Shown: positions 12,019 through 49,005, counted from the first letter of the stretch. The stretch: DNA of 54,003 nt from an uncultured Desulfobacterales bacterium (GCA_964454455.1 CAYVVQ010000004.1:1-54003); one strand, 5' to 3'. Numbers and translations are program-made. The notes: generated by a model from the sequence alone, not told the origin.

Positions 12019-12026
12019 ACGCCCCC

Positions 12027-22149: not shown

Positions 22150-22262
22150 GGTCCGGGCGTACCTCCTGCATGTGGATTCACGCCCTCGAAACGCCCCGGG
22201 CCTGCGGGGGAGGGCGGGCAAAGAATACCAGATCGGGACCCAAACTCAAAGGGGGTTCAGGT

Positions 22263-22294
22263 GTTGCAATTTGTTGCATCTAATGTTGCGCAAC
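22263..22294. promoter_or_regulatory. GTTGC-repeat cluster; candidate enhancer (UAS) or divergent-promoter element
   Basis: GTTGCA at 22263-22268, GTTGCA at 22273-22278, and the perfect palindrome GTTGCGCAAC at 22285-22294, in an AT-rich divergent intergenic region. Confidence 0.3.
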
Positions 22295-22460
22295 CTTGAA
22301 ACGGGAAAACATGTCAGTAAATACATATAGTTCATTTTGAAAATCAACGAAATGTTGAACCTGTCTGCAACGTCCACCCCATGGACGGATCGGAGGGTGG
22401 GAAAAGCCGGTCAGGGTCAACCCCTTGATTTTCAGCCCAGATTCTCTGTCCCGGGATCCA

Positions 22461-22476
22461 TGGCACGCTTTCTGCT
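22461..22476 (+). promoter_or_regulatory. Sigma-54 (-24/-12) promoter of the hdr-type locus
   Basis: TGGCACG-CTTT-CTGCT versus consensus TGGCACG-N4-TTGCW, with correct GG-N10-GC spacing. It lies ~200 bp upstream of the first gene; a repeat element occupies the leader. Confidence 0.7.
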
Positions 22477-22507
22477 GTTCATGAACCAGGATGAACGGCC
22501 TGAAGCA

Positions 22508-22611
22508 TGATGGAGTCGCAAGAAGCCCCCTATCTTGAGATCTGCCCTGGAGATATCCATAGGTTATGGCGTTTCCAGCGGCGGGTGAGCGGTTTTTTGC
22601 GAACCCGTCAA
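22508..22611 (+). repeat. MITE-like element, copy B (in the 5' leader of the hdr locus)
   Basis: TGATGGAGTCGCAAGAAGCC...TTGAGATCTGCCC...GGTTATGGCGTTTCCAGCGGCGGGTGAGCGGTTTTTTGCGAACCCGTCAA. Confidence 0.85.
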
Positions 22612-22672
22612 ACGCGCGTTTCGGTGGGCAACCCCGGGAGGGGGCCCATGGCCGAACCGGAGAACGAGGACC

Positions 22673-23110
22673 ATGCGCCCTTCCGCCCCTGGAAAGAAGG
22701 TCCTGGTGGTCGACGACGAGCCGGATGAGAGGATTTTCCTCTGCAGGCTCCTGGAGCTGGGCGGCTATGAGTCGATGCTGGCCTCCGACGCCACCGAAGG
22801 GCTCGACATGGCGGTGCGGGAGCGGCCGGACTTGATTTTGCTGGCCGTCATGTTCGACCACCACGGCAATCTCCTGTTGTTCGACGATCTCAAGCTGGAT
22901 ACCACCCTCAAGCAGATCCCCGTGGTCCTTCTCTCCTCCATCGACAAGAAGACCCTGTTTCAGCTCAGGGCCCTCCCCGGTGCACCCAGAGGGGGCTTTC
23001 TCCTGAGACCCGAGGGCTTCCTGGGCAAGCCACCGGAAGCGGACGAGCTCCTGGGTCTTCTGAATACGCTGACCCAATCCAGGCCCCCGGATTTCCCGGC
23101 CGGCCCTTGA
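22673..23110 (+). CDS. Receiver-like (CheY-fold) protein lacking the phospho-acceptor Asp
   Basis: KKVLVVDDEPDE...DLILLAVMF...VVLLSS...FLGKP. The DD pair, Ser/Thr and Lys-Pro are kept, but the acceptor position is Ala (codon 22844-22846). Confidence 0.75.
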   Translation: MRPSAPGKKVLVVDDEPDERIFLCRLLELGGYESMLASDATEGLDMAVRERPDLILLAVMFDHHGNLLLFDDLKLDTTLKQIPVVLLSSIDKKTLFQLRALPGAPRGGFLLRPEGFLGKPPEADELLGLLNTLTQSRPPDFPAGP

Positions 23111-23120
23111 GGCGGAAGCC

Positions 23121-26100
23121 ATGGAGACGAGAATCGGGTTTTACATCTGCCACTGCGGCATCAACATCGCCGGCAAGGTGGACGTGGAGGCCGTGGCGGC
23201 CTACATTCGAACCCTTCCCGGCGTGACGGTCTCCCGGGACTACAAGTTCATGTGCTCGGACCCCGGCCAGGAGATGATCGTCGACGACATCCGAGAGCAC
23301 GGACTGAACCGGGTGGTGGTGGCTTCCTGCTCTCCCCGGCTTCACGGCAAGACCTTCATGGGCGCCTGCCAGCGCGCCGGCCTCAATCCGTACTACTTCC
23401 AGATGGCCTCGGTCCGGGAGCAGGTCTCCTGGGTGACCGAGGATCCGGAGCGCGCCACGGACAAGGCCAAGAGCCTGGCCCGGGCGGCGGTGAACCGGGT
23501 CCGGCTCCACGAAAGCCTCTTCGCGCGTCACGCCCGGGTCCACCCCGACGTGATGGTCGTGGGGGGCGGCATCGCGGGGATCCAGGCCGCCCTGGACATC
23601 GGGTCGGCGGGAAGAAAGGTGTACCTCGTGGAGCGGGATCCGACCATCGGCGGGCACATGCTCCAGTTCGACAAGACTTTTCCCACGCTCGACTGCGCCG
23701 CCTGCATCGGCACCCCCAAGATGGTGGAGGTCGCGCAGAACCCCCACGTGGAGCTCCTCTCCTACAGCGAGGTCAAGGAGGTCAACGGCTACATCGGCAA
23801 CTACACGGTCACGGTCCGGAAAAAGCCCCGCTACGTCGTCGAAGGGGTGTGCACGGGTTGCGGCGAGTGCGCCAAGGTCTGTCCGGTGACCGTCCCCAGC
23901 GAGTGGGACGAGGGGCTCGCGGAGCGGGCGGCCGTGTACCGTTCGTTCCCCCAGGCCGTCCCCATCACCTACGTCATCGACAAGCGGGATCGCGCGCCCT
24001 GCAACACGGCCTGTCCGGCCGGCATCAACGTGCAGGGCTACGTGCAGCTGGTCAGGCAGGGGAAGCACGACGAGGCCGTGCGCCTGATCCGGGAACGCCT
24101 GCCGCTTCCGGGCGTCCTGGGAAGGGTCTGCCCGGCCTTCTGCGAGGATCGGTGCCGGCGGGCGGAGCTGGACGCATCCGTGGCCATCCGACAGCTCAAA
24201 CGCGTCGCCGCGGATCTGGCCGGCCCCGCGGCTTGGGGAGCGCCGCCGATCGAGGAACGGGAGGAGCGGGTGGCCGTCATCGGATCCGGGCCGGCCGGGC
24301 TCAGCGCGGCCTATTTCCTCCGATTGGACGGCTTCCAGGTGACCCTGTTCGAGGCCCTGGAGAAGCTGGGCGGCATGCTCCGTGCGGGCATTCCGGACTT
24401 TCGCCTGCCGCCGGAGATCCTGGACCGGGAGATCGGGCAGATCCTGGCGCTGGGGGTGGAGGTGCGAACCGGTGCGGTCTTGGGCAGGGACTTCCGGCTG
24501 GACTCCCTGAAGGAGCAGGGGTTCGGAGCCGTCTTCCTGGGGATCGGAGCCCACAAGGACCTGTCCCTCGGCGTGGAGGGGGAGGAGAGCGACGGCGTGC
24601 TCCGGGCCGTGGAGTTCCTGCGGCGGGCCAACCTCGGGGAGAGGGTGGACGTGGGCCGGCGGGTGGCCGTGGTGGGGGGCGGCAACGTGGCCGTGGACGC
24701 GGCGCGTGTCGCTCGGCGGCTGGGCGCGGAGGAGGTCTCCATCGTGTACCGCCGGTCCGAGGCGGAGATGCCCGCCTATCCCGAGGAGATCCAGGGGGCC
24801 GGGGAGGAGGGAATCCGGATCGCCTACCTGAAGGCCCCGGTGCGGGTGGTGCTGGAGAGCGGCCGCGCCTCGGGGCTGGAGTGCATCGACACCCGGCTCG
24901 GACCGCCCGACAAGGGTGGTCGGAGCCGGCCCGAGCCGGTGGAAGGATCCGAGCACGTGCTCCCCGTGGACACGGTCATCACGGCCATCGGACAGCGGGT
25001 GGACGATACCTGGTCCCGTGAGGCGGGGCTTTCGTGGAGCCGGCAGGGGACCGTCGAGGCGCATCCCCGCACCTTGCAGACTTCCCTCCCCCACGTGTTC
25101 GCGGCCGGGGACGCGGTGAGCGGACCGGCCAGCGTGGTGGAGGCCGTGGGGGCGGGCCGGAGGGCCGCCCGGGGCATCCGCCGCTTTCTCGACGGAGAGG
25201 ACCTGGCGCACGAGCCCGTGGAGGCCGAGAAGACCGCCTGGGGCAAGGACTGGAACCCGGTCCCCGATGACCTGGAACGGCTGGGGCGGGCCGAAGCGTC
25301 CCATCGCGACGCGCAGGATCGGGTTCGGGGCTTCGCGGAGGTGGAGGACGCCCTCGACGGAGAGCAGGCGCAGGCCGAGGCGGCGCGCTGCCTCAACTGT
25401 GGGGTCTGCTCCGAGTGCATGGAGTGCGTAAAGGTGTGCGAGGCGCACGCCATCGATCACGGCATGCAGGCCGAGGAGGTCGAGCTTCAGGTGGGCAGCA
25501 TCATCCTGGCGACGGGCTACGATCTCCTGGACCCCACGCCCATGAAACCCTTCGGGTACGGGAAGTATCCCAACGTCTTCACCAGTCTCGAGTTCGAGCG
25601 CATGAACAACGCCACCGGACCCACCGGCGGGCGGATCCTCATGCGGGACGAGGACGGCGGGTTTTCGAGCCCGCCGGAAAGCGTGGCCATCGTCCACTGC
25701 GTGGGAAGCCGGGACGACCGCTATCACAGCTACTGCTCGCGCGTCTGCTGCATGTACGCCCTCAAGTACGGGCACCTGGTGCACGACAAGGTGGGGCCCG
25801 GGACCGCGATCTATGACTTCTACATCGACATGCGCTGCTTCGGAAAGGGGTACGAGGAGTTCTATCGCCGGTGCCAGGAGGAGGGCATCCAGTTCATCCG
25901 GGGCAAGCCCGCCGAGATCCTGGAGGAGGGCGGGAAGCTGGTCCTGGTCGGGGAGGATACCCTGATCGGACGCCGCTACCGCGTGCCCGTGGACATGGTG
26001 GTGCTCTGCGCCGCGATGCAGGCGAGATCCGATGCGGGTGAGATGGGCCGGATCTTCGGGATCAGCCAGGGACAGGACGGGTTCTACCTGGAGGAGCATC

Positions 26101-26504
26101 CCAAGCTGGCGCCTCTTTCCACGGCCTCGGACGGGATCTTCCTGGCCGGGACCTGCCAGGCGCCCCGGGACGTGCCGGACACCGTGGCCCAGGCCTCGGG
26201 TGCGGCCGCCAAGTCCCTGGCCCTGGCCTCCCTGGGGGAGGTCGAGATCGAGCCCACCACGAGCTGGATCGATCCGGATATCTGCGCCGGATGCCAGGTC
26301 TGCATCGATCTCTGCCCTTACGGGGCCATCGAGTTCGACCCCCAGCGGCATGTCTCCGTGGTCAACGAGGCCCTGTGCAAGGGCTGCGGGAGCTGCGCGG
26401 GGTTCTGCCCGAGCGGAGCGGCCCGATGCGCCTCCTTCAAGAGCCGGCAGCTGTTCGCGGAGCTGGACGGCATCTTCGACGCCATTCATCAGGTGGGGAG
26501 GTAA
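23121..26504 (+). CDS. hdrA: HdrA-like FAD/Fe-S flavoprotein with a nested NfnB/GltD-like NAD(P)H-binding module (1127 aa)
   Basis: HdrA N-domain (IGFYICHCGINIAG...VVVASCSPR), FAD motif (VMVVGGGIAGIQAALD), CVGSRD...YCSRVCC, and a C-terminal 2x[4Fe-4S] ferredoxin. Between the two Cys motifs of the inserted ferredoxin domain sits a GltD/NfnB-type unit (CNTACPAGINVQGY, VAVIGSGPAGLSAAYFL, VAVVGGGNVAVDAAR, FAAGDAV). Confidence 0.85.
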   Translation: METRIGFYICHCGINIAGKVDVEAVAAYIRTLPGVTVSRDYKFMCSDPGQEMIVDDIREHGLNRVVVASCSPRLHGKTFMGACQRAGLNPYYFQMASVREQVSWVTEDPERATDKAKSLARAAVNRVRLHESLFARHARVHPDVMVVGGGIAGIQAALDIGSAGRKVYLVERDPTIGGHMLQFDKTFPTLDCAACIGTPKMVEVAQNPHVELLSYSEVKEVNGYIGNYTVTVRKKPRYVVEGVCTGCGECAKVCPVTVPSEWDEGLAERAAVYRSFPQAVPITYVIDKRDRAPCNTACPAGINVQGYVQLVRQGKHDEAVRLIRERLPLPGVLGRVCPAFCEDRCRRAELDASVAIRQLKRVAADLAGPAAWGAPPIEEREERVAVIGSGPAGLSAAYFLRLDGFQVTLFEALEKLGGMLRAGIPDFRLPPEILDREIGQILALGVEVRTGAVLGRDFRLDSLKEQGFGAVFLGIGAHKDLSLGVEGEESDGVLRAVEFLRRANLGERVDVGRRVAVVGGGNVAVDAARVARRLGAEEVSIVYRRSEAEMPAYPEEIQGAGEEGIRIAYLKAPVRVVLESGRASGLECIDTRLGPPDKGGRSRPEPVEGSEHVLPVDTVITAIGQRVDDTWSREAGLSWSRQGTVEAHPRTLQTSLPHVFAAGDAVSGPASVVEAVGAGRRAARGIRRFLDGEDLAHEPVEAEKTAWGKDWNPVPDDLERLGRAEASHRDAQDRVRGFAEVEDALDGEQAQAEAARCLNCGVCSECMECVKVCEAHAIDHGMQAEEVELQVGSIILATGYDLLDPTPMKPFGYGKYPNVFTSLEFERMNNATGPTGGRILMRDEDGGFSSPPESVAIVHCVGSRDDRYHSYCSRVCCMYALKYGHLVHDKVGPGTAIYDFYIDMRCFGKGYEEFYRRCQEEGIQFIRGKPAEILEEGGKLVLVGEDTLIGRRYRVPVDMVVLCAAMQARSDAGEMGRIFGISQGQDGFYLEEHPKLAPLSTASDGIFLAGTCQAPRDVPDTVAQASGAAAKSLALASLGEVEIEPTTSWIDPDICAGCQVCIDLCPYGAIEFDPQRHVSVVNEALCKGCGSCAGFCPSGAARCASFKSRQLFAELDGIFDAIHQVGR
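23988..25220 (+). other. NfnB/GltD-like insertion within hdrA (domain coordinates, approximate)
   Basis: About aa 290-700 of the 23121..26504 ORF, bounded by CTGCGECAKVCP upstream and CLNCGVCSECMECVKVCE downstream. Confidence 0.65.
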
Positions 26505-26596
26505 TGCAGCCCTTAACCTTGAGATCTGCCCAGGGAATATCAATAGGTTATGGCGTTTCCAGCGGCGGGTGAGCAGGTTTTTGCGAATCCGTCAAA
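26505..26596 (+). repeat. MITE-like element, copy C (left end truncated), in the hdrA-mvhD spacer
   Basis: It starts right after the TAA at 26502-26504: ...CCTTGAGATCTGCCCAGGGAATATCAATAGGTTATGGCGTTTCCAGCGGCGGGTGAGCAGGTTTTTGCGAATCCGTCAA. The left terminal repeat is missing. Confidence 0.8.
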
Positions 26597-26616
26597 CACG
26601 AGGAACGGGGAGAGCC

Positions 26617-27045
26617 ATGAGCAACGACGATTTCGAGCCCACCATCATCGCGTTCGTCTGCAACTGGTGCACGTACACGGCTGCGGACCTGGCCGGCACC
26701 TCCAGGCTGATCTACCCGATCAACGTGCGCCTGGTCCGGGTCATGTGCACGGGCATGGTGGATCCCAAGTACGTGATCAAGGCGTTCCTGGAAGGCGCGG
26801 ACGCCGTGCTCATCAGCGGGTGCCACCCGGGCGACTGCCACTACATCAACGGGAACTTCAAGGCCCGGCGGCGGGTCAAGCTGCTCAAGGAGATCCTGCC
26901 GCAGTTCGGCATCGAGCCGGAGCGTCTCAAGCTCACCTGGATCGGGGCGAGCGACGGCCTGGAGTTCGCCCACACGGTGGACGGCCTGGTCGCTTCGATC
27001 AGGGAGATCGGCCCGACCGAGGTCCGGCAAACCATGGTCCTCTAA
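26617..27045 (+). CDS. mvhD: MvhD/FlpD-like [2Fe-2S] protein
   Basis: 142 aa: IIAFVCNWCTY...RVMCTGMVDP...ISGCHPGDCHY, the hallmark of the methyl-viologen-reducing hydrogenase delta-subunit family. Only the last 142 codons of track ORF 26032..27045 are used. Confidence 0.9.
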   Translation: MSNDDFEPTIIAFVCNWCTYTAADLAGTSRLIYPINVRLVRVMCTGMVDPKYVIKAFLEGADAVLISGCHPGDCHYINGNFKARRRVKLLKEILPQFGIEPERLKLTWIGASDGLEFAHTVDGLVASIREIGPTEVRQTMVL

Positions 27046-27059
27046 ACCGAGAGGTCAGC

Positions 27060-28199
27060 ATGTCCCAGGGATTCAAGATCGAGGTCAAGGAAGGCGATGC
27101 CGGAGGCGCACTGCGGGATTTTCTGGGAGCGATTCTCGAGCGGGAGGAGATCCGCGCCGTCCTGACGCCCTTGCGGCTGCCGTACAAGGCAAACGTGATG
27201 CCCACGCTGGTGGCCGACGGGGAGCGGCTCAGCGAGGCGGACCCTCTTTCCCCCGCCTACCCCCTGAGCGGGGCCCGGCTCCTGAGCCGACTGACCCGCG
27301 AGGAGGCGGGCGGCCGGATCGCCGCGGTTCTCCGCCCGTGCGAGATTCGGGCCTTCATAGAGCTCGTCAAGCTCAAGCAGGCCTCCCGTGAGGGCCTGGT
27401 TCTCATCGGTCTGGACTGTGCCGGGGCCTTCTCGAACGACGTGTTCGCCCGGGCCGCGGCCGAAGACGAATCGGGGGACCTGACCCGGCGTTTTCTTCGA
27501 GCCGCCTTTGCCGGGGAAGAGAACCCGGCGGGGTACGAGCTCGCCGGGGCATGCCGCGCCTGCGAGCACCCCACGCCGGACGGCGCCGATGTGGCGGTCG
27601 GGCTCCACGGCGGGGACCCGGAGCGGGAGATCCGGGTCGAGGCCCGGACCGACGCCGGAAAGGCCTTGCTGGCCGACCTGGGGCTTCCGGAGTCCGCGGA
27701 ACCGGAAGGTCGATCCAGGGCCGTGAAGGAGAGGGTCGAGAGGGCGGTCCAGCGGCGGGAGGAGATGTTCGACCGGACCCGGCAGGCCACCGACAGCGTG
27801 AAAAAGCTCACGTCCTACCTCGCCTCCTGCGTAAACTGCTTCAACTGCCGCGTGGCCTGCCCGGTCTGCTACTGCCGGGAGTGCGTCTTCGGGACGGACG
27901 TCTTTGAGCACGAACCCCGGCAGTACTTGAACTGGGCCGACCGGAAGGGGGCCGTGAAAATGCCTACGGACACGGTGTTCTACCATCTCACGCGCATGGC
28001 CCACATGGCGGCCTCCTGCGTGGGCTGCGGCCAGTGCTCGAACGCCTGCCCGAACGACATCCCGGTCATGGAGCTGTTTCGCACCGTGGCCCACCGGGTG
28101 CAGCAGGGCTTCGACTACGAGCCCGGCCGCAGTGTGGAGGAACCCCTTCCCCTTGCGGTGTTCCGCGAGAACGAGTTGGCCGAGGTGGTGGGACGATGA
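27060..28199 (+). CDS. Fe-S protein with 2x[4Fe-4S] motifs (AsrA/HydB/FlxB-C-like or FrhB-like electron-transfer subunit)
   Basis: ATG at 27060. RPCEIRAFIEL, then CVNCFNCRVACPVCYCRECVF and CVGCGQCSNACPNDIP. The exact family is not resolved by eye. Confidence 0.6.
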   Translation: MSQGFKIEVKEGDAGGALRDFLGAILEREEIRAVLTPLRLPYKANVMPTLVADGERLSEADPLSPAYPLSGARLLSRLTREEAGGRIAAVLRPCEIRAFIELVKLKQASREGLVLIGLDCAGAFSNDVFARAAAEDESGDLTRRFLRAAFAGEENPAGYELAGACRACEHPTPDGADVAVGLHGGDPEREIRVEARTDAGKALLADLGLPESAEPEGRSRAVKERVERAVQRREEMFDRTRQATDSVKKLTSYLASCVNCFNCRVACPVCYCRECVFGTDVFEHEPRQYLNWADRKGAVKMPTDTVFYHLTRMAHMAASCVGCGQCSNACPNDIPVMELFRTVAHRVQQGFDYEPGRSVEEPLPLAVFRENELAEVVGR

Positions 28200-31100
28200 G
28201 ACGAAAGATCGGCAAGGCGCTCGTGGTGGGCGCGGGGATCGCCGGCATTCGATCCGCCCTGGATCTGGCCGAAACCGGTTACGGCGTGACACTGATCGAC
28301 CGCGCGCCCCACATCGGCGGCATCCTGTCGCAGCTCGACCGCCAGTTCCCGACGGACGCCTGCGGCATGTGCCGGATGCTTCCCATGGTGGAGCGGGACG
28401 CCGGCGGCCAGTACTGCCTGCGCAAGGGCCTGTTTCACGAAAACATCGACCTGAGGCTGGGAACCGAGCTGAAGGGCCTGGAGGGGGAGCCCGGAAGGTT
28501 CGAGGCCGTGCTGAGCACGCGCAGGGCCCGAATCGATCCGGACCGATGCCAGGGCTGCGGCGCGTGCGCCGAGGCCTGCCCCGTGGAGCTGCCCGATCCT
28601 TTCAACGAGGGCCTATCCAGGAGGAAGGCCGTCTATCTTCCCGTGCCCCACGCGGTGCCGAACCCGTTCGTCATCGATGCGGAGGCCTGCACCCTCTGCG
28701 GCGCCTGCGAGCAGGTCTGCCCCACCAACGCGATCACCCTCGGGGATCCCGGCCGGAAGGAGTTCCGCGTCCTCGTCGTGGACGACGAGCGGATCGTCCG
28801 GGACTCTCTCAAGGACTGGCTCGAGGACGTGGGGTTCGGGGTGGACACGGCGGGCTCGGGTCAAGAGGCCCTGGACCGGCTGGAGCAGGATTCCTTCGAC
28901 CTCCTGCTGGTGGACATCAAGATGCCCGGCATGGACGGTGTGGAGGTCCTGCGCCGCGCGCTCGAGAGCCGTGCCGATCTCACCGTGATCATGATCACGG
29001 CTTACGCCACGGTGGACACCGCGGTGGAGGCCATGAAGATCGGCGCCCTGGACTACCTGACCAAGCCGTTCGACCCGGAAAAGCTGGTCCCCATGGTGGA
29101 AAGCGTGTACCAGGACCGCCGCGGCCCCGGCAGGGAAACCCTGGAGGTGGGGGCGGTGGTGCTCGCCTGCGGCATGTCCACCCTGGACCTGACCGAAGGG
29201 TTCGGCTGGACCGGCTACCGGGAGATGGCCGACGTGGTGACCGGCCTCGAGCTCGAAAGGATCCTGAGCGGCACCGGTCCCACTGGAGGGTGCCTGACAA
29301 GGCCCTCCGACGGAGGGCCCGTAAAGCGGATCGCCTGGCTCCAGTGCGTGGGATCCCGAGACCGCCAAGCCGATGCCGGTTTCTGCTCCTCCATCTGCTG
29401 CATGATCTCCCTCAAGGAGGCGCGCCTGGTCCAGAAGCGCACCGGCGGCGAGGTGGAGACCCACATCTTCTACATGGACCTTCGCACTCCGGGGAAACGA
29501 TTCCAGCGTTACGGTGAGGAGGCGGAAGCCGAGGGCGTGCAGCTGCATCGGGTACGCGTCCACTCGGTGGTGCCGGAGGAGAAGACCGGGCGCCCGAAGA
29601 TCCAGTACGTCTCGGAGGAGGGTGCCCTGCGGGAGGAGACCTTCGACCTGGTGGTGCTTGCGGTGGGAGCCCGGCCCCCGGTCGGCACGGCCGAGCTGGC
29701 AGGCATGCTCGAGCTGGATCGCAATCCGTGGGGGTTCGTAAAGCCCAAGGGGTTTCACCCGGCCTTGTCCAGCCGCGAGGGCGTGCTCCTGAGCGGCGCC
29801 TTTGCGTCCCCTTGCGACATCGCCGACTCGGTCCTGCTGGCCGGCGGGGCCGCCCTGGAGGCCTCCCGCATCCTTCACGCCGCGGGGGGAGGCCTGGCGC
29901 CGGAAGATTCGGAGGAGAGCCCCTACCGGGATGTTTCGCGGGAGCGGTCCAGGACCCTGATCGCACTCTGCCGATGCGCCAGGGAGACCGTTCCCGACCT
30001 CGACCTCGAAGGTTTGGCCCGCGACCTGGAGGCCGATCCCGGCGTCGAGCAAGTGGAGATCGTCGAGAACCTGTGCACGGCCGCCGGCTGGGACGCCCTG
30101 GTGGAATCGGCCCGGAAGATACGACCCAACCGCGTCCTCCTGGGGGCGTGCCTTCCCTATGTGTACAACCGAAGGCTCGGCGAGCTGGGCGGGCGGATCG
30201 GTCTGGCCCCGGCCTACATGGACGTGGTGGATCTCCGGACCCCCTTCTTCTCCGTAAGGGAGCCCGAGGCGGCACGCCGCCTGGCGGGCTCGGAGATCCG
30301 CATGGCGCTGGCCCGGATCCGGCGGCCCGGTCCGCCGGCCCGGGCGGCCCGGCCCGTGGAGCGCAGGGCCCTCGTGGTGGGGGCTGGAATCGCGGGTCTC
30401 TATGCGGCGCTGGCCATCGCCGACCACGGTTACCCCGTGGAGATCGTGGAGCGCGAAACCGCACCGGGCGGAAACCTGACCTGGCTGCCCCGCACGCTCG
30501 AAGGCCGGGAGCCGGCCGGGCTCCTCGAGGGCATCCTGGCCGACGTGGAGAAGCACCCTCGGATTCAACTCCACACCTCGACGGAGGTGGTGGACTCCTC
30601 CGGGCGCGCGGGGCGGTTCCGGACCGTCCTTCGGAACGCCGAGGGGGTTCGCCGGACCGTGGACCACGGCGTGACCATCCTGGCCACGGGAGGGCGGGAA
30701 GCGGAGCCCGAGGGGTTCGGCCGGGGGGAGGACGAGAAGGTCCTCACCCAGAGGGAGCTGGAGAAGGCCCTGGCCGGGGGAGACCTGGACCCGGCCGGAC
30801 TGGAGTCCGTGGTAATGATCCAGTGCGCGGGAACCCGGAGCGGTTCCCGGAACTACTGCAGCCGGGTCTGCTGCCCCGCGGCCGTCCGGCAGGCGCTTCT
30901 CCTCAAGGAGAGGAACCCGGAGGTTTCGGTCTGGATTCTTTACCGCGACATGATGACGCCCGGGTTCCTGGAGGCCGACTACGAACGGGCCAGGGAGGCC
31001 GGGGTGCACTTCATCCAGTACACGACCGAGAGGAGACCGGTGGTGGAGCCGGGGGAGAAAAAGGCGGCGGTCACGGCTCGGGAGCCGGTGCTCGGCCGGG

Positions 31101-31657
31101 ATGTTCGGATCCCGGCCGATCTCGTGGTCCTGGCGGGCGGCGTGACGCCCGACCTGCCTGCAGAGCTCGCGGGCGCCTTCGGTGCCGGACTGGACGAGGA
31201 CGGATTTTTCCAGGAGGCCGACGGAAAGTGGCGCCCGGTGGATGCCATGCGCGAGGGGGTGTTCGCCTGCGGCCTGGCCGGTTCCCCCCGGACCGTGGCC
31301 GAGTCCCTGGCGTCGGCCGGGGCCGCCGCGGAGCGGGCCCTCCGAATTCTCACGAGGGAAGCCGTTCCCGTAGACCTCCGGGTGGCCCGCATTCGCCACG
31401 CTCTCTGCTCGCGCTGCGAGCAGTGCCTGGACGCCTGCCCTTACGGGGCTCGGTACGTGGACCCCGAAAAGGGCCTCGTGGTCGTGGACGAGACGGCGTG
31501 CCAGGGCTGCGGCAGCTGTGCGGCCGTCTGTCCGAACAGCGCCACCGTTCTCGAGGGGCTGGACGACCCCCGTATGCTCGAGTCCATCGACGCGGCCCTG
31601 GAGACGGGGTGGAGGGAACCGAGGCTTTCGGAGGAACGGCTGGACAGCGGACGCTGA
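28196..31657 (+). CDS. hdrA: Tandem HdrA-like flavoprotein (two HdrA modules) with an embedded CheY-type receiver domain (1153 aa)
   Basis: ATG at 28196 overlaps the upstream stop (ATGA). Module 1: VVGAGIAGIRSALDLAETG, CQGCGACAEACP, CTLCGACEQVCP, REC insert, CVGSRD...CSSICC. Module 2: degenerate HdrA N-domain (LCRCARE...LLGACLP), VVGAGIAGLYAALAIADHG, QCAGTR...YCSRVCC, and C-terminal CSRCEQCLDACP/CQGCGSCAAVCP. Confidence 0.85.
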   Translation: MRRKIGKALVVGAGIAGIRSALDLAETGYGVTLIDRAPHIGGILSQLDRQFPTDACGMCRMLPMVERDAGGQYCLRKGLFHENIDLRLGTELKGLEGEPGRFEAVLSTRRARIDPDRCQGCGACAEACPVELPDPFNEGLSRRKAVYLPVPHAVPNPFVIDAEACTLCGACEQVCPTNAITLGDPGRKEFRVLVVDDERIVRDSLKDWLEDVGFGVDTAGSGQEALDRLEQDSFDLLLVDIKMPGMDGVEVLRRALESRADLTVIMITAYATVDTAVEAMKIGALDYLTKPFDPEKLVPMVESVYQDRRGPGRETLEVGAVVLACGMSTLDLTEGFGWTGYREMADVVTGLELERILSGTGPTGGCLTRPSDGGPVKRIAWLQCVGSRDRQADAGFCSSICCMISLKEARLVQKRTGGEVETHIFYMDLRTPGKRFQRYGEEAEAEGVQLHRVRVHSVVPEEKTGRPKIQYVSEEGALREETFDLVVLAVGARPPVGTAELAGMLELDRNPWGFVKPKGFHPALSSREGVLLSGAFASPCDIADSVLLAGGAALEASRILHAAGGGLAPEDSEESPYRDVSRERSRTLIALCRCARETVPDLDLEGLARDLEADPGVEQVEIVENLCTAAGWDALVESARKIRPNRVLLGACLPYVYNRRLGELGGRIGLAPAYMDVVDLRTPFFSVREPEAARRLAGSEIRMALARIRRPGPPARAARPVERRALVVGAGIAGLYAALAIADHGYPVEIVERETAPGGNLTWLPRTLEGREPAGLLEGILADVEKHPRIQLHTSTEVVDSSGRAGRFRTVLRNAEGVRRTVDHGVTILATGGREAEPEGFGRGEDEKVLTQRELEKALAGGDLDPAGLESVVMIQCAGTRSGSRNYCSRVCCPAAVRQALLLKERNPEVSVWILYRDMMTPGFLEADYERAREAGVHFIQYTTERRPVVEPGEKKAAVTAREPVLGRDVRIPADLVVLAGGVTPDLPAELAGAFGAGLDEDGFFQEADGKWRPVDAMREGVFACGLAGSPRTVAESLASAGAAAERALRILTREAVPVDLRVARIRHALCSRCEQCLDACPYGARYVDPEKGLVVVDETACQGCGSCAAVCPNSATVLEGLDDPRMLESIDAALETGWREPRLSEERLDSGR
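28760..29113 (+). other. Receiver (REC) domain embedded in the tandem HdrA (domain coordinates)
   Basis: EFRVLVVDDERIVRDSL...FDLLLVDIKMPGMDGVEVL...LTVIMITAYATVDTAVEAMKIGALDYLTKPFDPEKL. The acceptor Asp codon is at 28913-28915. Confidence 0.85.
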
Positions 31658-31677
31658 TCATGCCGTGAGGAGGCGTC

Positions 31678-32256
31678 ATGAAGGAGATCCAGAGGAAGGA
31701 CCCACCCGCTTCGAGCGATGCGGAGCAGGCGGACATCCTGGCCGCGGTGAGGAAACTGATTCAGCCCTGCATCCAGTGCGGGACGTGCACGGGCTCGTGT
31801 CCCAACGCGTTCGCCATGGACCTCACGCCCCGCGTGCTTTGGCGGCTGGTGCTGCGGGGGGAGGTGGACGAGATCTTCCACAGCCGGACCTTCACCCTGT
31901 GCTCCTCCTGCTACGCCTGCACGTTGCGGTGTCCGCGTCAGCTCCAGGTGACCGAAGCCATGGCCGGGCTCAAGCAGGAGGCCGCGAGGCGCCGGCCCGA
32001 GCTGCATCGCCCCAGCACGGCGTTCAGCAGGACCTTCATGGACAGCGTCCGCCGGCACGGCCGGGTCAACGAGATGGAGTTCATGTTTTTCTACTTCGCC
32101 GCCCGGAAGAACCCGCTCCTTCCCTTTCGATTCTCCCCCATGGGCATGAGGCTGATGCGAAGGGGCAAGGTGAAGATGTCCCTGCCCGGCTCGGGCGGAA
32201 ACGACGTTCTGGATTCCCTGTTTCGAACCGTGGAGCGACTGGAGAGCACCCCATGA
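31678..32256 (+). CDS. hdrC: HdrC-like 2x[4Fe-4S] subunit
   Basis: CIQCGTCTGSCP and CSSCYACTLRCP motifs. 192 aa, GAGGAGG RBS, overlaps hdrB (ATGA). Confidence 0.8.
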   Translation: MKEIQRKDPPASSDAEQADILAAVRKLIQPCIQCGTCTGSCPNAFAMDLTPRVLWRLVLRGEVDEIFHSRTFTLCSSCYACTLRCPRQLQVTEAMAGLKQEAARRRPELHRPSTAFSRTFMDSVRRHGRVNEMEFMFFYFAARKNPLLPFRFSPMGMRLMRRGKVKMSLPGSGGNDVLDSLFRTVERLESTP

Positions 32257-33119
32257 GGTACTTCTACTACCCGGGATGCTCCCTGGAGGGAACCGCCAGG
32301 GAGTACGACCTGAGCACCCGTGCGTTTCTCCGCGCGGCCGGGGTGGACCTGGTGGATCTGCCCGACTGGACCTGCTGCGGGGCCACCGCGGCCCAGGGGA
32401 TGAGCCGGCTGCTCGCGCTGGCGCTCCCGGCCCGGAATCTGGCCCTGGCCGAGAGGACCGGCGAGAACCTGGACATCCTGGTCCCCTGCAGCGCCTGCTA
32501 CCTGAACCTGAGAAGGGCCGAGGAGAGGATCCGCTCGGGCGGGGAGGCGAAGCGCGAGATCAACGCGGCCCTGTCCGAGACCGGGCTCCAGTGCAGCGGG
32601 GAGGTCCGCGTGCGCCACCTCCTCGACGTCCTCTCCCGGGACCTGGATGCGGCATCGCTGGCCGAGCGCGTGACGCGTCCCCTCGAGGGGATGCGCATCG
32701 CCCCCTACTACGGCTGCCAGTGCCTGCGGCCGTATGCGGATTTCGACGACCCGGAGGAGCCCCGAACCATGGAACCGCTCATCCGGGCCGCCGGGGCTGA
32801 GGTGTTCCCCTGGACCGCCGGGGCCCGCTGCTGCGGGGCTTCCCACATGACCACCAAGCCGGAGATCGGGATCGAGCTCGTGGCGGGTCTCCTCGACGCG
32901 GCGCGGGGGGCGGATGCGATCGTGACCGTGTGCCCCATGTGCCAGATGAACCTCGAGGCCTATCAGCGCAAGGCCTCGCGCGCCCGGGGGGCCGACCTGA
33001 GTGCGACCGTTCTCTATCTTCCCCAGCTCCTCGGCCTGGCGCTGGGCCTTTCGAGAGACGAGGTCCGCCTCGATCTCAACCTCGCCGTCGGAGAAGCGTT
33101 CAAGAAGACGGCCGCCTGA
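32253..33119 (+). CDS. hdrB: HdrB-like subunit with two CCG domains
   Basis: ATG at 32253. YYPGCSL...DWTCCGA...VPCSACY and YYGCQC...ARCCGAS...VCPMCQ. Confidence 0.85.
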   Translation: MRYFYYPGCSLEGTAREYDLSTRAFLRAAGVDLVDLPDWTCCGATAAQGMSRLLALALPARNLALAERTGENLDILVPCSACYLNLRRAEERIRSGGEAKREINAALSETGLQCSGEVRVRHLLDVLSRDLDAASLAERVTRPLEGMRIAPYYGCQCLRPYADFDDPEEPRTMEPLIRAAGAEVFPWTAGARCCGASHMTTKPEIGIELVAGLLDAARGADAIVTVCPMCQMNLEAYQRKASRARGADLSATVLYLPQLLGLALGLSRDEVRLDLNLAVGEAFKKTAA

Positions 33120-33144
33120 CTCTTTCACCTGGAAAGGACCGCCG

Positions 33145-35448
33145 GTGTTCTCCTGGATCAAGAGCCTTCGGCAGAGGCTGGTGACCAAGCTGATCCTGAC
33201 CGTGGGGTTGACCCTGCTGGTCAGCATCTCGGCGTGGTCGTACGCCATCATCCGATACCAGGAGGACCAGACCATGAAGAACCTCTCCCTGGAGGCGGAC
33301 CGGCTGAGCACCACCATCAAGCTGGGGACCCACTACGCCATGATGCTGAACTCCAGGGAGGACATCGCCGAGACCATCAAGAACATCAGCCGACAGCCGG
33401 AGATCAAGGCGATCCGGATCTACAACAAGTCGGGCCAGATCACTTACTCGGACGATCCGGAAGAGATCGGCCGGATCACGAACATCAAGGACGAGGCCTG
33501 CTACGTGTGCCATCGCAGCGACCCGCCGCTGGTCAAGCTGGACCTGTCCGAAAGGACCAGGATCTACAGGGACGAGAACGACACCCGCCTCCTCGGCATC
33601 CTGAGCGCCATCTACAACGAGCCCGGGTGCTCCACGGAGTGCCACGTCCACCCCGAGGGGAAGGAGGTGCTGGGGGCTCTGGACGTGGTGCTCACACTGG
33701 CCCCCGCGGAGAAGAAGATCACCGCCTACAAGCAGTGGGCTACGGCCATGACCGTGCTTGTCCTTCTGGTTACGGCCGTGGCGGTGCTCCTGTTCATCAT
33801 GCACTTCGTCAATCTTCCCGTGAGCCGCATGATTGCGGCCACCCGGCGGATCGCGAGGGGGGAGAGCGATGTGGGCGTGGAGCTCCGCCAGGAGGACGAG
33901 ATGGGGCAGCTGGCGGATGCCATCACCTACATGGGAGGTGAGATCGAGCGGAAACAGGCGGCCCTGACCAAGCAGCGCAAGGAGTATCAGCGGTTGTTCG
34001 AGCTCGTCCCCTGCATCATCACGGTGCAGGACAGAAACTACAGGCTCATCAACTACAACCGGGAGTTCGCCGAGAAGTTCGCCCCGACCCCCATGGACAC
34101 CTGCTACCACGCCTACAAGGGCCGAACGACCAAGTGCGAGCCTTGCCCCGTGGAGAGGACCTTCGAGGACGGCGAGGTGCACCAGAGCGAGGAGTCCGGA
34201 CGGAATTGGGACGGCACCATGAGCCACTGGATCGTGATCGCTTCCCCGGTCTGGAACGAGAAGGGCGAGATCCAGTCGGCCATGGAGATCAGTCTGGACA
34301 TCACGGAACGGAGGCTTCTGGAGCAGGAGCTGATAAAGTCCGAGCAGAAGTATCACGCCATCTTCAACAACATTCCCAACGCCGTCTTCGTCCTGGATCC
34401 GGACACCCTGGACGTCCTGGACTGCAACGACAGCGTGACCCATGTGTACGGCTACGAGAAAGGCGAGATCCTGAACCGGTCATTCCTGGAGCTTCACGAG
34501 GGGGAGGAGCATGAGCAGTTCGAAAGGATGCTCGGGGCTTACAATGTCCTCAACCGGGTGAGGCACAAGCACAAGGCGGGACGGAGGATCTACGTGAACA
34601 TCCGCGTCTCCCCCTCCGAGTACAACGGTCAGAATGTGCTCCTGGTCACCACGAGCGACATCACCAAGAGGCTGGAGACCGAGGAGCAGCTGGCCCAGGC
34701 GAGCAAGCTGGCCACCCTGGGAGAGATGGCCACGGGCGTGGCCCACGAGCTCAACCAGCCGCTTTCCGTGATCAAGACCGTATCGAGCTTCTTCATGAAA
34801 AAGCTCCATGCAGGACAGGAAATACCGGCCGAGACCCTCTACCCGATGCTCGGCAAGGTGGACACCAACGTGGACCGGGCCACCAAGATCATCACCCACA
34901 TGCGCCTTTTCGCCCGCAAGTCCGAGGTGCAGCTGGTCCGTGTGCGTGTCGAGGAGGTGCTGGATCGGGCCTTCGACATTTTCACCCAGCAGCTCAGGGC
35001 ACGGGGGATCGAGGTGGTCCGGGAGTTCAGTGGGAGACTTCCCCCCATCATGGCGGATCCGGACCGTCTCGAGCAGGTCTTCATCAATCTCCTGATCAAC
35101 GCGCGGGACGCCATTGAAGAGCGGTGGGAGGGCGCCGAGTGCGAGCCCGGGGACAAGCGGATCACCGTGAGGACGAGGGCCGAGGCCGACGCCGTGGTCG
35201 TGGAGATTCAGGACACGGGATCGGGGATCGATGAGGCCCACAAGGAAAAGATATTCGACCCTTTCTTTACCACCAAGGAGGTGGGCAAAGGGACCGGGCT
35301 GGGGCTGTCCATCAGCTACGGGATCGTCAAGGACTGCGAGGGAGAGATCTGCGTGGTCCAGACCGAGGGTCCGGGCGCGTGCTTCACCGTCCGGTTCCCC
35401 GTGAAGGATGAGGAGAATGAATCAACAGACCGTCCTCCTGGTGGATGA
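33145..35448 (+). CDS. Sensor histidine kinase (TM - extracytoplasmic CXXCH domain - TM - HAMP - PAS - PAS - HisKA - HATPase)
   Basis: GTG at 33145 with GGAAAGGA upstream. TM helices at about aa 14-36 and 200-222, CYVCH and CSTECH between them, H-box [17 protein letters not shown]-box [11 protein letters not shown]. Confidence 0.85.
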
Positions 35449-36997
35449 CGAGGAAGACATCCGCCTCGTGCTGGGAATCGCCCTCGCCGACATGGGATAC
35501 AACGTCATCTCGGCCGAAAACGGCAAGGAGGGGCTTCGCCTGTTTCGCGAGAAGCACCCGCCCATCGTGATCACCGACATCAAGATGCCCGACATCGACG
35601 GGGTGGACCTGCTCAGGATGATCAAGGGGGAGGATCCCGACACGGAGGTCGTCATGATCACCGGGCACGGGGACATGGACGTGGCCATTCAGAGCTTTCA
35701 GCAGGAGGCCACGGACTTCATCACCAAGCCCATCAACGTGGAGAACCTGGAGAGCTCGCTTCACCGGGTGCAGGAGCGGATCCTCGCCCGGGAGAAGCTG
35801 CGGGAGTACACCCACTCGCTGGAGAGCATGGTTCACCGGAAGTCGGAGGAGCTGGCCAGCCTGGAAAAGGCCCACCAGGGAGGGGACGGTGGGTTTCCGG
35901 CGGGGGACGTCGTCCGGCGTTTCCAACGGCTCTTCGACGACCTTCCCTGCCACGTGGTGGTGATGGACGAGGAGCTGGCGCTCACCACCGTCAATCGAAA
36001 GTTCCGCCGGGACTTCGGTGACCGCGAGGGAGAGTTGTGCTATGATGTGCTGAAAAACGCAACATCCCCTTGCACGGACTGCGTGGTTCAGGCGACCTTC
36101 ACCACGGGAGAGAGCCAGGAGGGAGAGGAGGAGATCACCACGCCGGACGGGGTGGCGCACCAGGTCCTGGTGTGGACGTCGCCGGTGCGCACGGCCGGGG
36201 ATGCCCCGACCCACGTGCTCACGCTCTACACCGACATGGCCCAGCTCCAGAAGGTCCAGGACCACCTGAGCTCGCTGGGGCTCATGGTGGGATCCATCTC
36301 CCACAGCATCAAGGGGATGCTCACAGGCCTGGACGGGGGCATGTACATGCTCGATTCGGGTCTGCGGAAGCAAGACGACGCCCAGGTCCACGAAGGTCTT
36401 TCCGTGGTCAAGGAGATGGTGGGGCGAATCCGGAACATGGTGCTGGACGTCCTGCTCTTCTCCAAGGAGCGGGACCTCAAGAAGGAAGAGTCGGAGGTGG
36501 TAGCGTTCGCTGCGGAGGCGGCCAAGGGGATTCGTCCCCTGGTGGAGGAGCATGGCATTGCCTTCAGCCTGGAGTGCCCCGAGGATGCGGGCGTGTTCGA
36601 GGTGGACGCGGGGCTTCTCCGCACGGCTTTCGTGAACGTGCTCGAGAACGCGGTGGACGCGTGTCTCGAGGACAAGGGGAAGGAGGACCACCGGGTTGCG
36701 TTTCGTGTTCGCGGGGAGGAGGACGAAGTCGTCTTCGAGGTGGAGGACGACGGCGTGGGCATGGACGAAGAGACCCGAAAGAAGGTGGCCACCCTGTTCT
36801 TCTCTTCGAAGGACCGCAAGGGAACCGGTCTGGGGCTCTACATCACGGAGCGGACCGTGAGGCAGCACGGCGGCGACATCGCCGTGGACTCCGAACCGGG
36901 CCGGGGGACGGTGTTCACCATTCGGATTCCACGGAAGGCCGATACGGGCAGTCAGGTCTCTCCCGGCGCCGTCGGCGGTCGGGGGGAGGAACCCTGA
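35408..36997 (+). CDS. Hybrid sensor kinase (REC-PAS-DHp-HATPase)
   Basis: [12 protein letters not shown]...IVITDIKMPDIDG...FITKP, then a PAS-like domain with a Cys triad, SLGLMVGSISHSIKG (H-box-like) and GTGLGLYI. It overlaps the upstream kinase gene by 41 nt; ATG at 35417 is an alternative start. Confidence 0.8.
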   Translation: MRRMNQQTVLLVDDEEDIRLVLGIALADMGYNVISAENGKEGLRLFREKHPPIVITDIKMPDIDGVDLLRMIKGEDPDTEVVMITGHGDMDVAIQSFQQEATDFITKPINVENLESSLHRVQERILAREKLREYTHSLESMVHRKSEELASLEKAHQGGDGGFPAGDVVRRFQRLFDDLPCHVVVMDEELALTTVNRKFRRDFGDREGELCYDVLKNATSPCTDCVVQATFTTGESQEGEEEITTPDGVAHQVLVWTSPVRTAGDAPTHVLTLYTDMAQLQKVQDHLSSLGLMVGSISHSIKGMLTGLDGGMYMLDSGLRKQDDAQVHEGLSVVKEMVGRIRNMVLDVLLFSKERDLKKEESEVVAFAAEAAKGIRPLVEEHGIAFSLECPEDAGVFEVDAGLLRTAFVNVLENAVDACLEDKGKEDHRVAFRVRGEEDEVVFEVEDDGVGMDEETRKKVATLFFSSKDRKGTGLGLYITERTVRQHGGDIAVDSEPGRGTVFTIRIPRKADTGSQVSPGAVGGRGEEP

Positions 36998-37021
36998 ACC
37001 GGAGCAAAAAGGAGGTGCGCT

Positions 37022-37378
37022 ATGGCCAAGAGGATCCTGGTCGTCGATGACGAGCAGGCGGTCGTGCGGTACATGACCACCCTGTTCGAGGATCACGGCT
37101 ACGAGGTGATCGCGGCGACGGACGGGGCGGAGGCCCTCAAGGTCCTGGACGATAACGTGCCGGATCTCATCACGTTGGACCTCCAGATGGACAAGGTCTG
37201 GGGACCGCAGTTCTACCGCAAGATGAGCAAGAACCCGGCCCTCGAGGATGTCCCCGTCATTGTCGTGAGCGGTCTCGCCCGGCCCGAGCTGGCCATCAAG
37301 AAGGCTGCGGCCGTGGTCGGGAAACCCTTCGACCCGGACGAGCTCGTCCGGATCGTTCGAGAACAGATCGGCGAGTAA
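37022..37378 (+). CDS. Single-domain CheY-like response regulator
   Basis: 118 aa: RILVVDDEQ...DLITLDLQMD...VIVVSG...VGKPF. AGGAGG RBS. Confidence 0.9.
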   Translation: MAKRILVVDDEQAVVRYMTTLFEDHGYEVIAATDGAEALKVLDDNVPDLITLDLQMDKVWGPQFYRKMSKNPALEDVPVIVVSGLARPELAIKKAAAVVGKPFDPDELVRIVREQIGE

Positions 37379-37547: not shown

Positions 37548-37651
37548 TTGACGGGTTCGCAAAAACCCGCTCACCCGCCGCTGGACACGCTATAACCTCT
37601 TGAAATCCCAAGGGCAGATCTCGAGGCTTCGGGCTTTTTGCGACGCCATCA
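37548..37651 (-). repeat. MITE-like element, copy D
   Basis: TTGACGGGTTCGCAAAAACCCGCTCACCCGCCGCTGGACACGCTATAACC...CAGATCTCGAGGCTTCGGGCTTTTTGCGACGCCATCA. Confidence 0.85.
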
Positions 37652-48974: not shown

Positions 48975-49005
48975 GACGGCTCGATTCAATCGAACCCGTC
49001 AATCA

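Follow-up and report, generated by a model that had tools for sequence, protein, structure and literature searches.

Genes for heterodisulfide reductase (Hdr)-like proteins that stand among genes for signal transduction raise two questions, namely, which kind of redox complex they encode, and whether it is controlled at the level of its synthesis, of its activity, or of both. Such a locus is found at positions 22461-37378 of a 54,003-nt stretch of DNA from an uncultured Desulfobacterales bacterium (GCA_964454455.1, CAYVVQ010000004.1:1-54003), which was analysed at full length and is hereafter called the window. It comprises a sigma-54 promoter followed by ten genes on the plus strand, encoding a receiver-like protein (pREC), HdrL, an MvhD-type subunit, an FdhB-like iron-sulfur (Fe-S) protein, a tandem HdrA with an internal receiver (REC) domain, HdrC, HdrB, two histidine kinases (HK1 and HK2) and a CheY-like regulator. 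Bifurcating complexes of the Hdr type hold a central place in the energy conservation of anaerobes, but their many bacterial versions, HdrL especially, remain hypothetical.

The original prediction, made from the sequence alone, described the locus as an NAD(P)H-linked complex of the Hdr type under redox-sensing two-component control. Our analysis indicates that the operon is real and that this interpretation, taken as a whole, is partly supported. With a probability that we put at roughly 60%, the locus encodes a complex of the HdrABC/HdrL type that bifurcates or confurcates electrons as an NAD(P)H:ferredoxin/(protein) disulfide enzyme, is expressed via sigma-54 and is probably tuned by phosphorylation.

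Redox subunits encoded by the locus

Gene calls and Pfam searches located every item of the original prediction where it had been placed, and its domain assignments were right. Only its count of eleven genes has to be corrected, as the promoter had been included with the ten genes.

In Pfam, HdrL (23121-26504) displays two HdrA halves on either side of an insert with Fer4_20 and Pyr_redox_2. Residues 2-289 and 762-1118 cover the solved HdrA chains over their full length (727 bits against 8rvu_a in a phmmer search of the PDB), and the insert, residues 291-770, corresponds to an NfnB/GltD-like module with FAD, an NAD(P)H site and two [4Fe-4S] clusters, its matches in the same search including NfnA (9n5u, 417 bits) and NfnB (4ylf_B, 301 bits). 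This NAD(P)H module is nested between both cluster motifs of the inserted ferredoxin domain of HdrA. All Fe-S cysteines of HdrL are conserved among 47 orthologues, as are the GGGIAG, GSGPAG, GGGNVA and YRR motifs. We take the YRR motif, located past the second Rossmann fold, to fit a preference for NADP(H), as in GltD and NfnB.

The MvhD-type [2Fe-2S] electron-transfer subunit (26617-27045; Pfam FlpD, 175 bits) carries five cysteines conserved in 97-100% of 70 orthologues. It is followed by an FdhB/FrhB-like Fe-S protein of 379 residues (27060-28199), possibly also a flavoprotein, which is encoded without an FdhA partner. This protein matches the FdhB chains of Hdr super-complexes over its full length (8rvu_E with an E-value of 1.4e-33, 9t1s_M and 7bkb_E) and harbours 15 cysteines that are invariant in 74 orthologues. 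In methanogen super-complexes, FdhB is the beta subunit linking formate dehydrogenase to MvhD and HdrA.

At the other end of the putative electron path, the HdrC-like subunit (31678-32256), recognised by the Pfam and NCBIfam CoB_CoM_SS_C models under the family cut-off, possesses eight cysteines in two CX2CX2CX3C motifs for two [4Fe-4S] clusters, all invariant in 57 orthologues. The HdrB-like catalytic subunit (32253-33119) contains two Pfam CCG domains and matches solved HdrB chains at 1e-42 to 3e-33; its ten CCG cysteines, corresponding to two non-cubane [4Fe-4S] clusters, are invariant in 51 orthologues. The conservation of these cysteines supports the predicted NAD(P)H-linked, Hdr-type character of the complex, as does that of the HdrL residues, namely, all Fe-S cysteines, the three glycine motifs for dinucleotide binding and YRR.

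Among the open reading frames (ORFs) of the window that have a Pfam match, none codes for a hydrogenase, a catalytic subunit of formate dehydrogenase, MetF or Flx. The absence of these partners, already remarked on in the original prediction, holds for every such ORF, with the reservation that the Fe-S protein is still an FdhB homologue.

A receiver domain within the tandem HdrA

The most unusual subunit is the tandem HdrA (28196-31657), a protein of 1153 residues in which Pfam detects a Response_reg domain at residues 192-301 (111 bits). Module 1 (residues 1 to about 560) consists of an FAD domain, an inserted ferredoxin domain and the REC (191-304), whose insertion point is exactly where the chain re-enters the FAD domain. 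Module 2 (583-1136) comprises an N-terminal-type 4-Cys domain, an FAD domain resembling that of sHdrA (6tjr_A) as well as a ferredoxin domain at the C terminus. The whole protein scores 331 bits against 8rvu_a (PDB phmmer), and its AlphaFold2 model, built with 120 homologues (predicted local distance difference test 86, predicted template-modelling score 0.86), retrieves HdrA chains in Foldseek with target template-modelling scores of 0.75-0.90.

Six residues of the REC, namely, D196 and D197 of the acidic pocket, the acceptor D240, the threonine T268, the switch tyrosine Y287 and the lysine K290, are invariant in 120 out of 120 full-length homologues sharing 52-88% identity. As far as can be judged from sequence, the invariance of these phospho-chemistry residues agrees with the proposal that the embedded REC is functional.

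A HMMER search of the whole library revealed that the REC-bearing form corresponds to a few clusters at 50% identity (about six full-length) within a much larger tandem-HdrA family, whose REC-less members are mostly proteins of about 1000 residues. The junction occupied by the REC varies among sister proteins, which carry at the same place nothing (about 1000 residues, P0139), a GltD/NfnB-like module (about 1500 residues, P0175) or extra ferredoxins (P0211). Since sister proteins differ there, the junction, which lies beside the ferredoxin arm, is a plug-in site for electron-input modules. It is mainly because a phospho-receiver fills this site in the REC-bearing clade that we propose an action of phosphorylation on the enzyme itself. 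Database records label the tandem HdrA merely 'response regulator' or 'heterodisulfide reductase subunit A', and no mention of a receiver domain in HdrA, of the haem kinase or of the sigma-54 architecture described below was found in the searchable literature, including a preprint on HdrA domain architecture.

Operon structure and conservation

The genes of the operon are separated by gaps of 10-25 nt, with 4-nt ATGA overlaps at the junctions of the Fe-S protein gene with hdrA and of hdrC with hdrB. The tight packing noted in the original prediction is confirmed at these places, but not in the hdrL-mvhD spacer of 112 nt, which contains a fragment of a repeat element, or between HK1 and HK2, whose reading frames overlap by 32-41 nt. 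Intrinsic terminators and sigma-70 promoters in the locus do not exceed the counts expected from shuffled sequences, so that the existence of sub-operons is neither supported nor disfavoured.

Conservation was assessed by a locus scan with one genome per species, and synteny was counted by tblastn in the 80 best loci, using for each gene only those loci with enough flanking sequence. Relatives of the tandem HdrA are encoded in at least 560 species-level genomes. The 80 best loci all belong to genomes of Desulfobacterales, Syntrophobacterales or the Desulfatiglandales type, among them Desulfatirhabdium, Desulfobacterium sp. N47, Desulfonema, Syntrophobacter and the Olavius Delta symbionts, and in the cultured species Desulfonema magnum a tandem HdrA homologue with the REC is encoded at full length. 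Dozens of species-level genomes display the gene order of the operon, their proteins being about 50-60% identical, and two loci of uncultured Syntrophobacter (L072 and L079) harbour the block at 49-50% identity. Retention in the 80 best loci amounts to 90-97% for the core, with the FdhB-like protein present in 66/69, MvhD in 60/62 and HdrL in 44/49 loci, to about 75% for hdrCB (HdrC in 55/71 and HdrB in 50/67), and to 65-77% for the haem kinase, HK1 being encoded at most 5 kb downstream in 39/60. Furthermore, pREC is present as the first gene of the operon in 28/41 loci, and the REC-kinase hybrid recurs in 33/80. Recurrent synteny of this extent leads us to reject chance clustering of the genes, and the synteny comparison that the original prediction had called for turns out positive, with the block co-conserved across Desulfobacterota loci.

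Variation at the disulfide end of the system is instructive. In 12 loci devoid of hdrCB, a 765-residue membrane protein of Fer4-TM-Fer4-CCG organisation (HdrF-like, TM standing for transmembrane) is encoded between pREC and hdrL (e.g. at 1075-3372 of L057). Owing to this CCG protein, which has multiple TM helices, the hdrCB-less variants retain a CCG site, in some cases anchored in the membrane. The membrane protein suggests that they represent a menaquinone-linked version of the same system. Apart from these, an extra CCG protein was noticed in another 17 loci and an extra HdrC-like protein in 17 loci.

The surroundings of the operon raise a further possibility, in which the complex would feed low-potential electrons not to DsrC, the acceptor favoured below, but to another reductase, for instance one that, like class II benzoyl-CoA reductase (Bam), acts on CoA esters or aromatic rings. 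Genes for an enoyl-CoA hydratase, a thiolase and a CoA-transferase lie downstream in the window, and the tandem-HdrA scaffold belongs, as seen above, to the much larger REC-less family, both of which would accord with such a role. However, only the closest relatives (L004, L005 and L058) have retained these acyl-CoA genes, the window has no gene for an aldehyde-oxidoreductase-type (BamB-like) or other reductase, and the CCG-type disulfide site is kept in the loci examined. The CoA-ester or aromatic reductase context was rejected on the ground that the downstream genes are not co-conserved, and we regard delivery to another reductase as highly unlikely.

Predicted sigma-54-dependent transcription

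A -24/-12 element, TGGCACGCTTTCTGCT, is located at 22461-22476 on the plus strand and differs by one mismatch from the consensus TGGCACG-N4-TTGCW. It is the sole plus-strand match in the 54-kb window, and a comparable element precedes the pREC orthologue in 22/35 loci. About 180-200 nt upstream, at 22258-22295 (plus strand), lies a putative upstream activating sequence (UAS) in which TGTTGC(A/G) occurs three times and which includes the palindrome TGTTGCGCAACC; three of the eight TGTTGC(A/G) 7-mers of the window cluster at 22262-22290. When the 250 nt upstream of the -24/-12 elements were compared, ATGCAACA, counted with its reverse complement, was the top 8-mer, occurring in 16/22 regions, that of the window included. 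The TGTTGCA/TGCAACA repeats often recur as TGTTGCGCAACA upstream of these elements.

A candidate activator is encoded further upstream (18785-20530, plus strand). This sigma-54 enhancer-binding protein (EBP; Pfam Sigma54_activat and HTH_8) contains a Cys-rich PAS domain, a second PAS domain, an AAA+ domain with the GAFTGA motif and an HTH_8 domain, and it scores 318-355 bits with NCBIfam models of the NifA/NtrC type. The cysteines C62, C71 and C75 of its first PAS are invariant in 21 orthologues, and an EBP gene is found 5' of the operon, on either strand, in 22/41 loci. Judging from sequence features, promoter, UAS and EBP together form the layout expected of an EBP-activated sigma-54 operon. 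As the arrangement of promoter and UAS is conserved across genera, the case for sigma-54 is stronger than the single motif on which it was originally based.

The same cannot be said of the link between transcription and the two-component proteins. Of the redox-sensing two-component control initially proposed, the sigma-54 part gains strength from the conserved promoter, the conserved repeats and the linked EBP, but no obvious route leads from the two-component genes to transcription. The EBP lacks a REC domain, hence an output of the kinases to transcription is not evident, and transcriptional control and phospho-control look like separate layers.

Signalling proteins

HK1 (33145-35448) is a membrane histidine kinase of 767 residues, identified by its Pfam domains and by a CYVCH sequence at residue 119. 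It consists of a TM helix (residues 12-36), a periplasmic domain, a second TM helix (197-220), a HAMP domain, a PAS domain with four cysteines, a further PAS domain, HisKA and HATPase. The periplasmic domain contains two haem motifs, CXXCH (C119/C122) and CX3-4CH (C162/C166), both of which are invariant in 42 orthologues, as are C290, C320, C331 and C334 of the first cytoplasmic PAS. No Pfam family was assigned to the periplasmic domain, for which the best match, CHASE8, reaches 17 bits and stays under its cut-off.

HK2, a kinase hybrid composed of REC, a Cys-bearing PAS and HATPase (Pfam; start at 35408 or 35417, end at 36997), has PAS cysteines at C208, C219 and C222. It is followed by the CheY-like single-domain response regulator (37022-37378; Response_reg, 82 bits). 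A third kinase, a REC-PAS-histidine kinase hybrid of 515 residues (17024-18571, plus strand; Pfam Response_reg, PAS, HisKA and HATPase_c), is encoded upstream of the EBP gene. Among the 41 loci whose upstream flank is complete, 14 have a plus-strand orthologue of this upstream kinase ahead of the operon. All three kinases display an H-box (HisKA or HisKA-like, the H-boxes being visible in the sequence) and a HATPase_c domain (Pfam), and the acceptor Asp is kept in the RECs of HK2, CheY and the upstream kinase. The genes for the upstream kinase and the EBP are on the same strand as the operon, from which they are parted by two minus-strand genes, and we consider that they belong functionally with it.

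Of note, PAS domains with cysteines in conserved patterns occur in three regulators, at residues 290-334 of HK1 (C-x29-C-x10-C-x2-C), 178-222 of HK2 and 62-75 of the EBP, with PAS_4 or PAS_9 as the only assignments. This hints at a shared PAS subtype sensing redox conditions through a metal or an Fe-S cluster.

So dense a set of signalling parts, with four REC domains and a pseudo-REC, with three kinases, and with cysteine-rich PAS domains carried by HK1, HK2 and the EBP, could also be taken to mean that the Hdr-like proteins are mainly a redox sensor. They would then report the state of NAD(P)H, ferredoxin or thiols to a phosphorelay through the REC, which is indeed located inside a redox protein, and would not carry bulk catabolic flow. 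The strict conservation of the full catalytic CCG sites and of the NAD(P)H site speaks for an enzyme instead, and an enzyme also fits better with the situation in Syntrophobacter fumaroxidans, where the homologues rank with the most abundant of the putatively confurcating proteins when sulfate is reduced (PMC5947623). A predominant sensory role therefore has very little probability in our view.

The receiver-like protein pREC (145 residues, 22673-23110; Pfam Response_reg, 34 bits) bears directly on the role of the embedded REC. At its acceptor position it reads 'LLAVMF', with Ala in place of Asp. Among 36 aligned orthologues, the Ala is shared with L058, whereas most have Asp and some have Asn or Glu. 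The description of pREC as an acceptor-less receiver is accurate for the window and L058, but most orthologues keep the Asp, and the loss is consequently a feature of the lineage and not of the family.

One could imagine that the reading of the complex as an enzyme is right and that its REC, without being phospho-regulated, serves structure or assembly, for example, by making a REC-REC contact with the pseudo-receiver, the kinases acting elsewhere, e.g. on CheY. REC domains commonly dimerise, and the pREC proteins with Ala, Asn or Glu indicate that a phosphorylation-independent function of REC exists in the system. Moreover, about 25-35% of loci have no HK1 close to the operon. Against this, the six invariant residues in 120 homologues at 52-88% identity are hard to explain without phospho-chemistry, and the gene for the haem kinase begins 9-149 nt past hdrB or hdrA in 25/42 loci, directly after hdrA when hdrCB is missing. 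A purely structural REC hence appears unlikely, and we retain a REC that is phosphorylated as part of the proposed mechanism.

Proposed mechanism

Gene content, synteny and the conservation of cofactor ligands, REC residues, promoter and UAS are established by the results above. The assembly of the subunits into a complex, bifurcation, the nature of the substrate, the pairing of the kinases with the REC and the effect of phosphorylation are steps that we infer, and they can be pictured as follows. The gene products would form a soluble complex of the HdrABC/HdrL type with multiple flavins and Fe-S clusters, in which hydride would be taken or given at the NfnB/GltD-like NAD(P)H site of HdrL. 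MvhD and the FdhB-like protein would wire HdrL to the tandem HdrA, whose flavin would split or merge electron pairs between two partners, low-potential ferredoxin, reacting at the ferredoxin domains, and a disulfide-type substrate of high potential. The latter, most plausibly oxidised DsrC, would be handled via HdrC at the two non-cubane clusters of HdrB. Such a complex would be a functional analogue of FlxABCD-HdrABC.

At the level of transcription, the linked PAS-AAA+ EBP would bind the TGTTGCA repeats and activate the sigma-54 promoter. A post-translational layer would be provided by HK1, with its periplasmic dihaem sensor and 4-Cys PAS, by the REC-kinase hybrid, by CheY and by the small REC protein, the genes of which surround those of the enzyme. 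The REC of HdrA, beside the mobile ferredoxin arm, would be the likely target of those kinases, and phosphorylation of D240 may alter the flux through the complex or its direction. In a more specific version, which we put forward tentatively and hold to be rather doubtful, phosphorylated D240 would act as a valve gating whether, and which way, the electrons of NAD(P)H split between ferredoxin and DsrC, the valve being set by the dihaem kinase via the REC-kinase relay. Such gating would follow from the place of the REC, at the hinge of the mobile ferredoxin arm.

Several points weigh against our reading of the complex as a whole, in addition to the lost acceptor of pREC, the loci where HK1 is missing nearby and the activator devoid of REC. 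To our knowledge, no member of the cluster family has ever been purified, and complex formation and bifurcation rest on homology. The subunits do not reach the equivalog level of NCBIfam, with scores of 488-630 versus 1100-1400 for HdrA, 162 versus 345 for HdrB and 70 versus 160 for HdrC. As these scores fall far under the cut-offs, which is expected for a bacterium, the Hdr subunits are not CoM-S-S-CoB (coenzyme M-coenzyme B heterodisulfide) reductases. In the tandem HdrA, module 1 lacks the N-terminal domain and module 2 the inserted ferredoxin domain, so that the electron path may differ from that of the methanogen enzyme. Neither dsrC nor dsrAB is present in the window, the flanks of the relatives not having been searched for them, and the assignment of DsrC as substrate thus derives from the literature. 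Finally, the repeat element described below has inserted into both the leader and the hdrL-mvhD spacer, which could disturb co-transcription of the genes in this genome.

A dispersed repeat and other features of the window

An intergenic repeat of about 107 nt is present in six copies in the 54 kb, in both orientations, at 8580-8685 (minus), 22500-22625 (plus), 26518-26600 (plus), 37548-37651 (minus), 49001-49108 (plus) and 53857-53966 (plus). Its fold is that of a long hairpin with imperfect pairing (-50.8 kcal/mol, z = -4.2). The copy in the hdrL-mvhD spacer (26518-26600) is partial, and that in the leader, at 22503-22609, corresponds to a precise 107-nt insertion when compared with the empty site of L058, which is 90% identical. 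Copies are absent from the relatives examined, the repeat has no match in Rfam, and its core was found in Joint Genome Institute metagenomes on four contigs only, all from one sample. We conclude that it is an element resembling miniature inverted-repeat transposable elements or repetitive extragenic palindromic sequences and is foreign to the system. As L058 lacks the element and has an empty site upstream of pREC, the repeat must have been active recently. A leader RNA or riboswitch, considered for the sequence of about 100 nt that lies 5' of both pREC and mvhD, was rejected given the lack of an Rfam match, the empty site in L058 and the six dispersed copies. The copy at the right end of the window adjoins a gene for an HdrD-like protein of 366 residues, with two [4Fe-4S] motifs and two CCG domains (52713-53813, minus strand).

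The window has a GC content of about 66%, and proteins identical to its own are encoded on metagenome contigs from microbial mats. In addition to the HdrD-like gene, it contains genes for an RND efflux system, CoA-ester enzymes and an extracytoplasmic function (ECF) sigma factor, as well as ORFs without a Pfam match. Two of the latter, at 11889-14486 (plus) and 9264-10454 (minus), are long and have gene-like GC contents at third codon positions of 0.85-0.89; the former sits in the most GC-rich part of the window (0.70-0.73). The GC content of positions 1-4000 is 0.48-0.53, compared with about 0.65 elsewhere, and this part, which includes an ORF without Pfam match at 2696-3520, may be foreign or mobile DNA. 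Directly 3' of the CheY gene, a protein with cyclic nucleotide-binding (cNMP) and PilZ domains is encoded at 37806-38507 (plus strand) and is kept only in the closest relatives L005 and L058.

Significance

The intact REC within HdrA, the variable junction at which it is inserted and the -24/-12 promoter with TGTTGCA repeats found across genera appear to be undiscussed in the searchable literature. The cluster spans hundreds of species of Desulfobacterota, which dominate marine sulfate reduction. Its conserved phospho-receiver, dedicated haem sensor kinase and sigma-54 region would offer a testable handle on the question whether, and by what means, bifurcation or confurcation is regulated post-translationally, and the conserved TGTTGCA motif provides a means of mapping the regulon. 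If the complex is indeed gated by a phosphorylation valve, it would be the first bifurcase under two-component control, coupling the periplasmic redox state directly to cytoplasmic energy conservation. Cultured hosts are available with D. magnum, which has the REC-bearing homologue, and S. fumaroxidans, which has HdrABC/HdrL. We rate the interest of the system as moderate to high, since the conserved embedded receiver makes post-translational control testable in cultured organisms.

Comparison with known systems

The locus had been singled out as a candidate for an undescribed system, a view that does not hold for its redox core, which by gene content and order matches locus VIII of Desulfobacterium autotrophicum HRM2 (PMC2702500) and HdrABC/HdrL of S. 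fumaroxidans (PMC5947623). According to the published descriptions, HRM2 locus VIII and the S. fumaroxidans genes Sfum_0819-0824 share with the window the order hdrL, mvhD, FdhB-like gene, hdrA, hdrC and hdrB, and their hosts belong to the same group. The core is a known but uncharacterised cluster family. In the HRM2 paper of 2009, HdrL was described as a fusion of Hdr and glutamate synthase with an NADH site and proposed as the entry point for NADH, and a response regulator, a histidine kinase and a CheY-like regulator already appear in the legend to the figure of the hdr loci (PMC2702500). In a proteomics study of 2018, the HdrABC/HdrL proteins of S. fumaroxidans were abundant only with sulfate, and their proposed role was electron confurcation, with a link to DsrC (PMC5947623); HdrL was still regarded as hypothetical in 2025 (PMC12142623). 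The REC in HdrA, the haem kinase, the sigma-54 promoter and the UAS are unmentioned in the HdrABC/HdrL papers, and the genome of the window further differs from these descriptions by the pseudo-receiver, with its Asp-to-Ala change, and by the repeat-element insertions.

With regard to the sensor, the periplasmic haem domains of the Geobacter chemoreceptors GSU0582 and GSU0935 likewise carry CXXCH in a periplasmic loop flanked by TM helices, in signalling proteins of an anaerobe of the deltaproteobacterial type, and related c-type haem sensor domains have been reported in Anaeromyxobacter (PMC3460858, PMC3831638). HK1 differs from the Geobacter proteins in having two motifs, no detectable Pfam or PAS match in this region, and a histidine kinase output that is tied genetically to a cytoplasmic redox enzyme.

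The FlxABCD-HdrABC complex of Desulfovibrio operates between NADH and ferredoxin/DsrC. It resembles the present system in its soluble HdrABC, its MvhD-type connector and its NAD(P)H-oxidising module, and for both a link between pyridine nucleotides, ferredoxin and DsrC in sulfate reducers has been proposed. In contrast, neither the locus nor the window contains FlxA, FlxB or FlxC genes; the NAD(P)H site belongs to an NfnB/GltD-like module lying inside a second HdrA, and an FdhB-like subunit and the REC-bearing tandem HdrA are added.

Clear homologues of the HdrA fold, the HdrB CCG sites, HdrC, MvhD and FdhB are found in MvhAGD-HdrABC, FdhAB-MvhD-HdrABC and Elp-Hdr (PDB 5ODC, 7BKB and 8RVU). 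Unlike these methanogen complexes, the window encodes neither a hydrogenase nor FdhA, and its host is bacterial, so that CoM-S-S-CoB is not the substrate; furthermore, HdrA is tandem-duplicated and bears a REC, and the NAD(P)H module is carried by another HdrA, HdrL. As for NfnAB and NfnABC (PDB 4YLF, 5JCA and 9N5U), the insert of HdrL aligns over the whole NfnB-type module, which is internal to HdrL and lacks an NfnA/NfnS partner in the window.

Fusion of REC to enzymes has precedents in CheB, PleD/WspR and RpfG, signalling enzymes with an N-terminal REC whose phosphorylation tunes their activity and not the binding of DNA. In the tandem HdrA, by contrast, the REC sits mid-chain, in a flavin- and Fe-S-containing subunit of energy metabolism.

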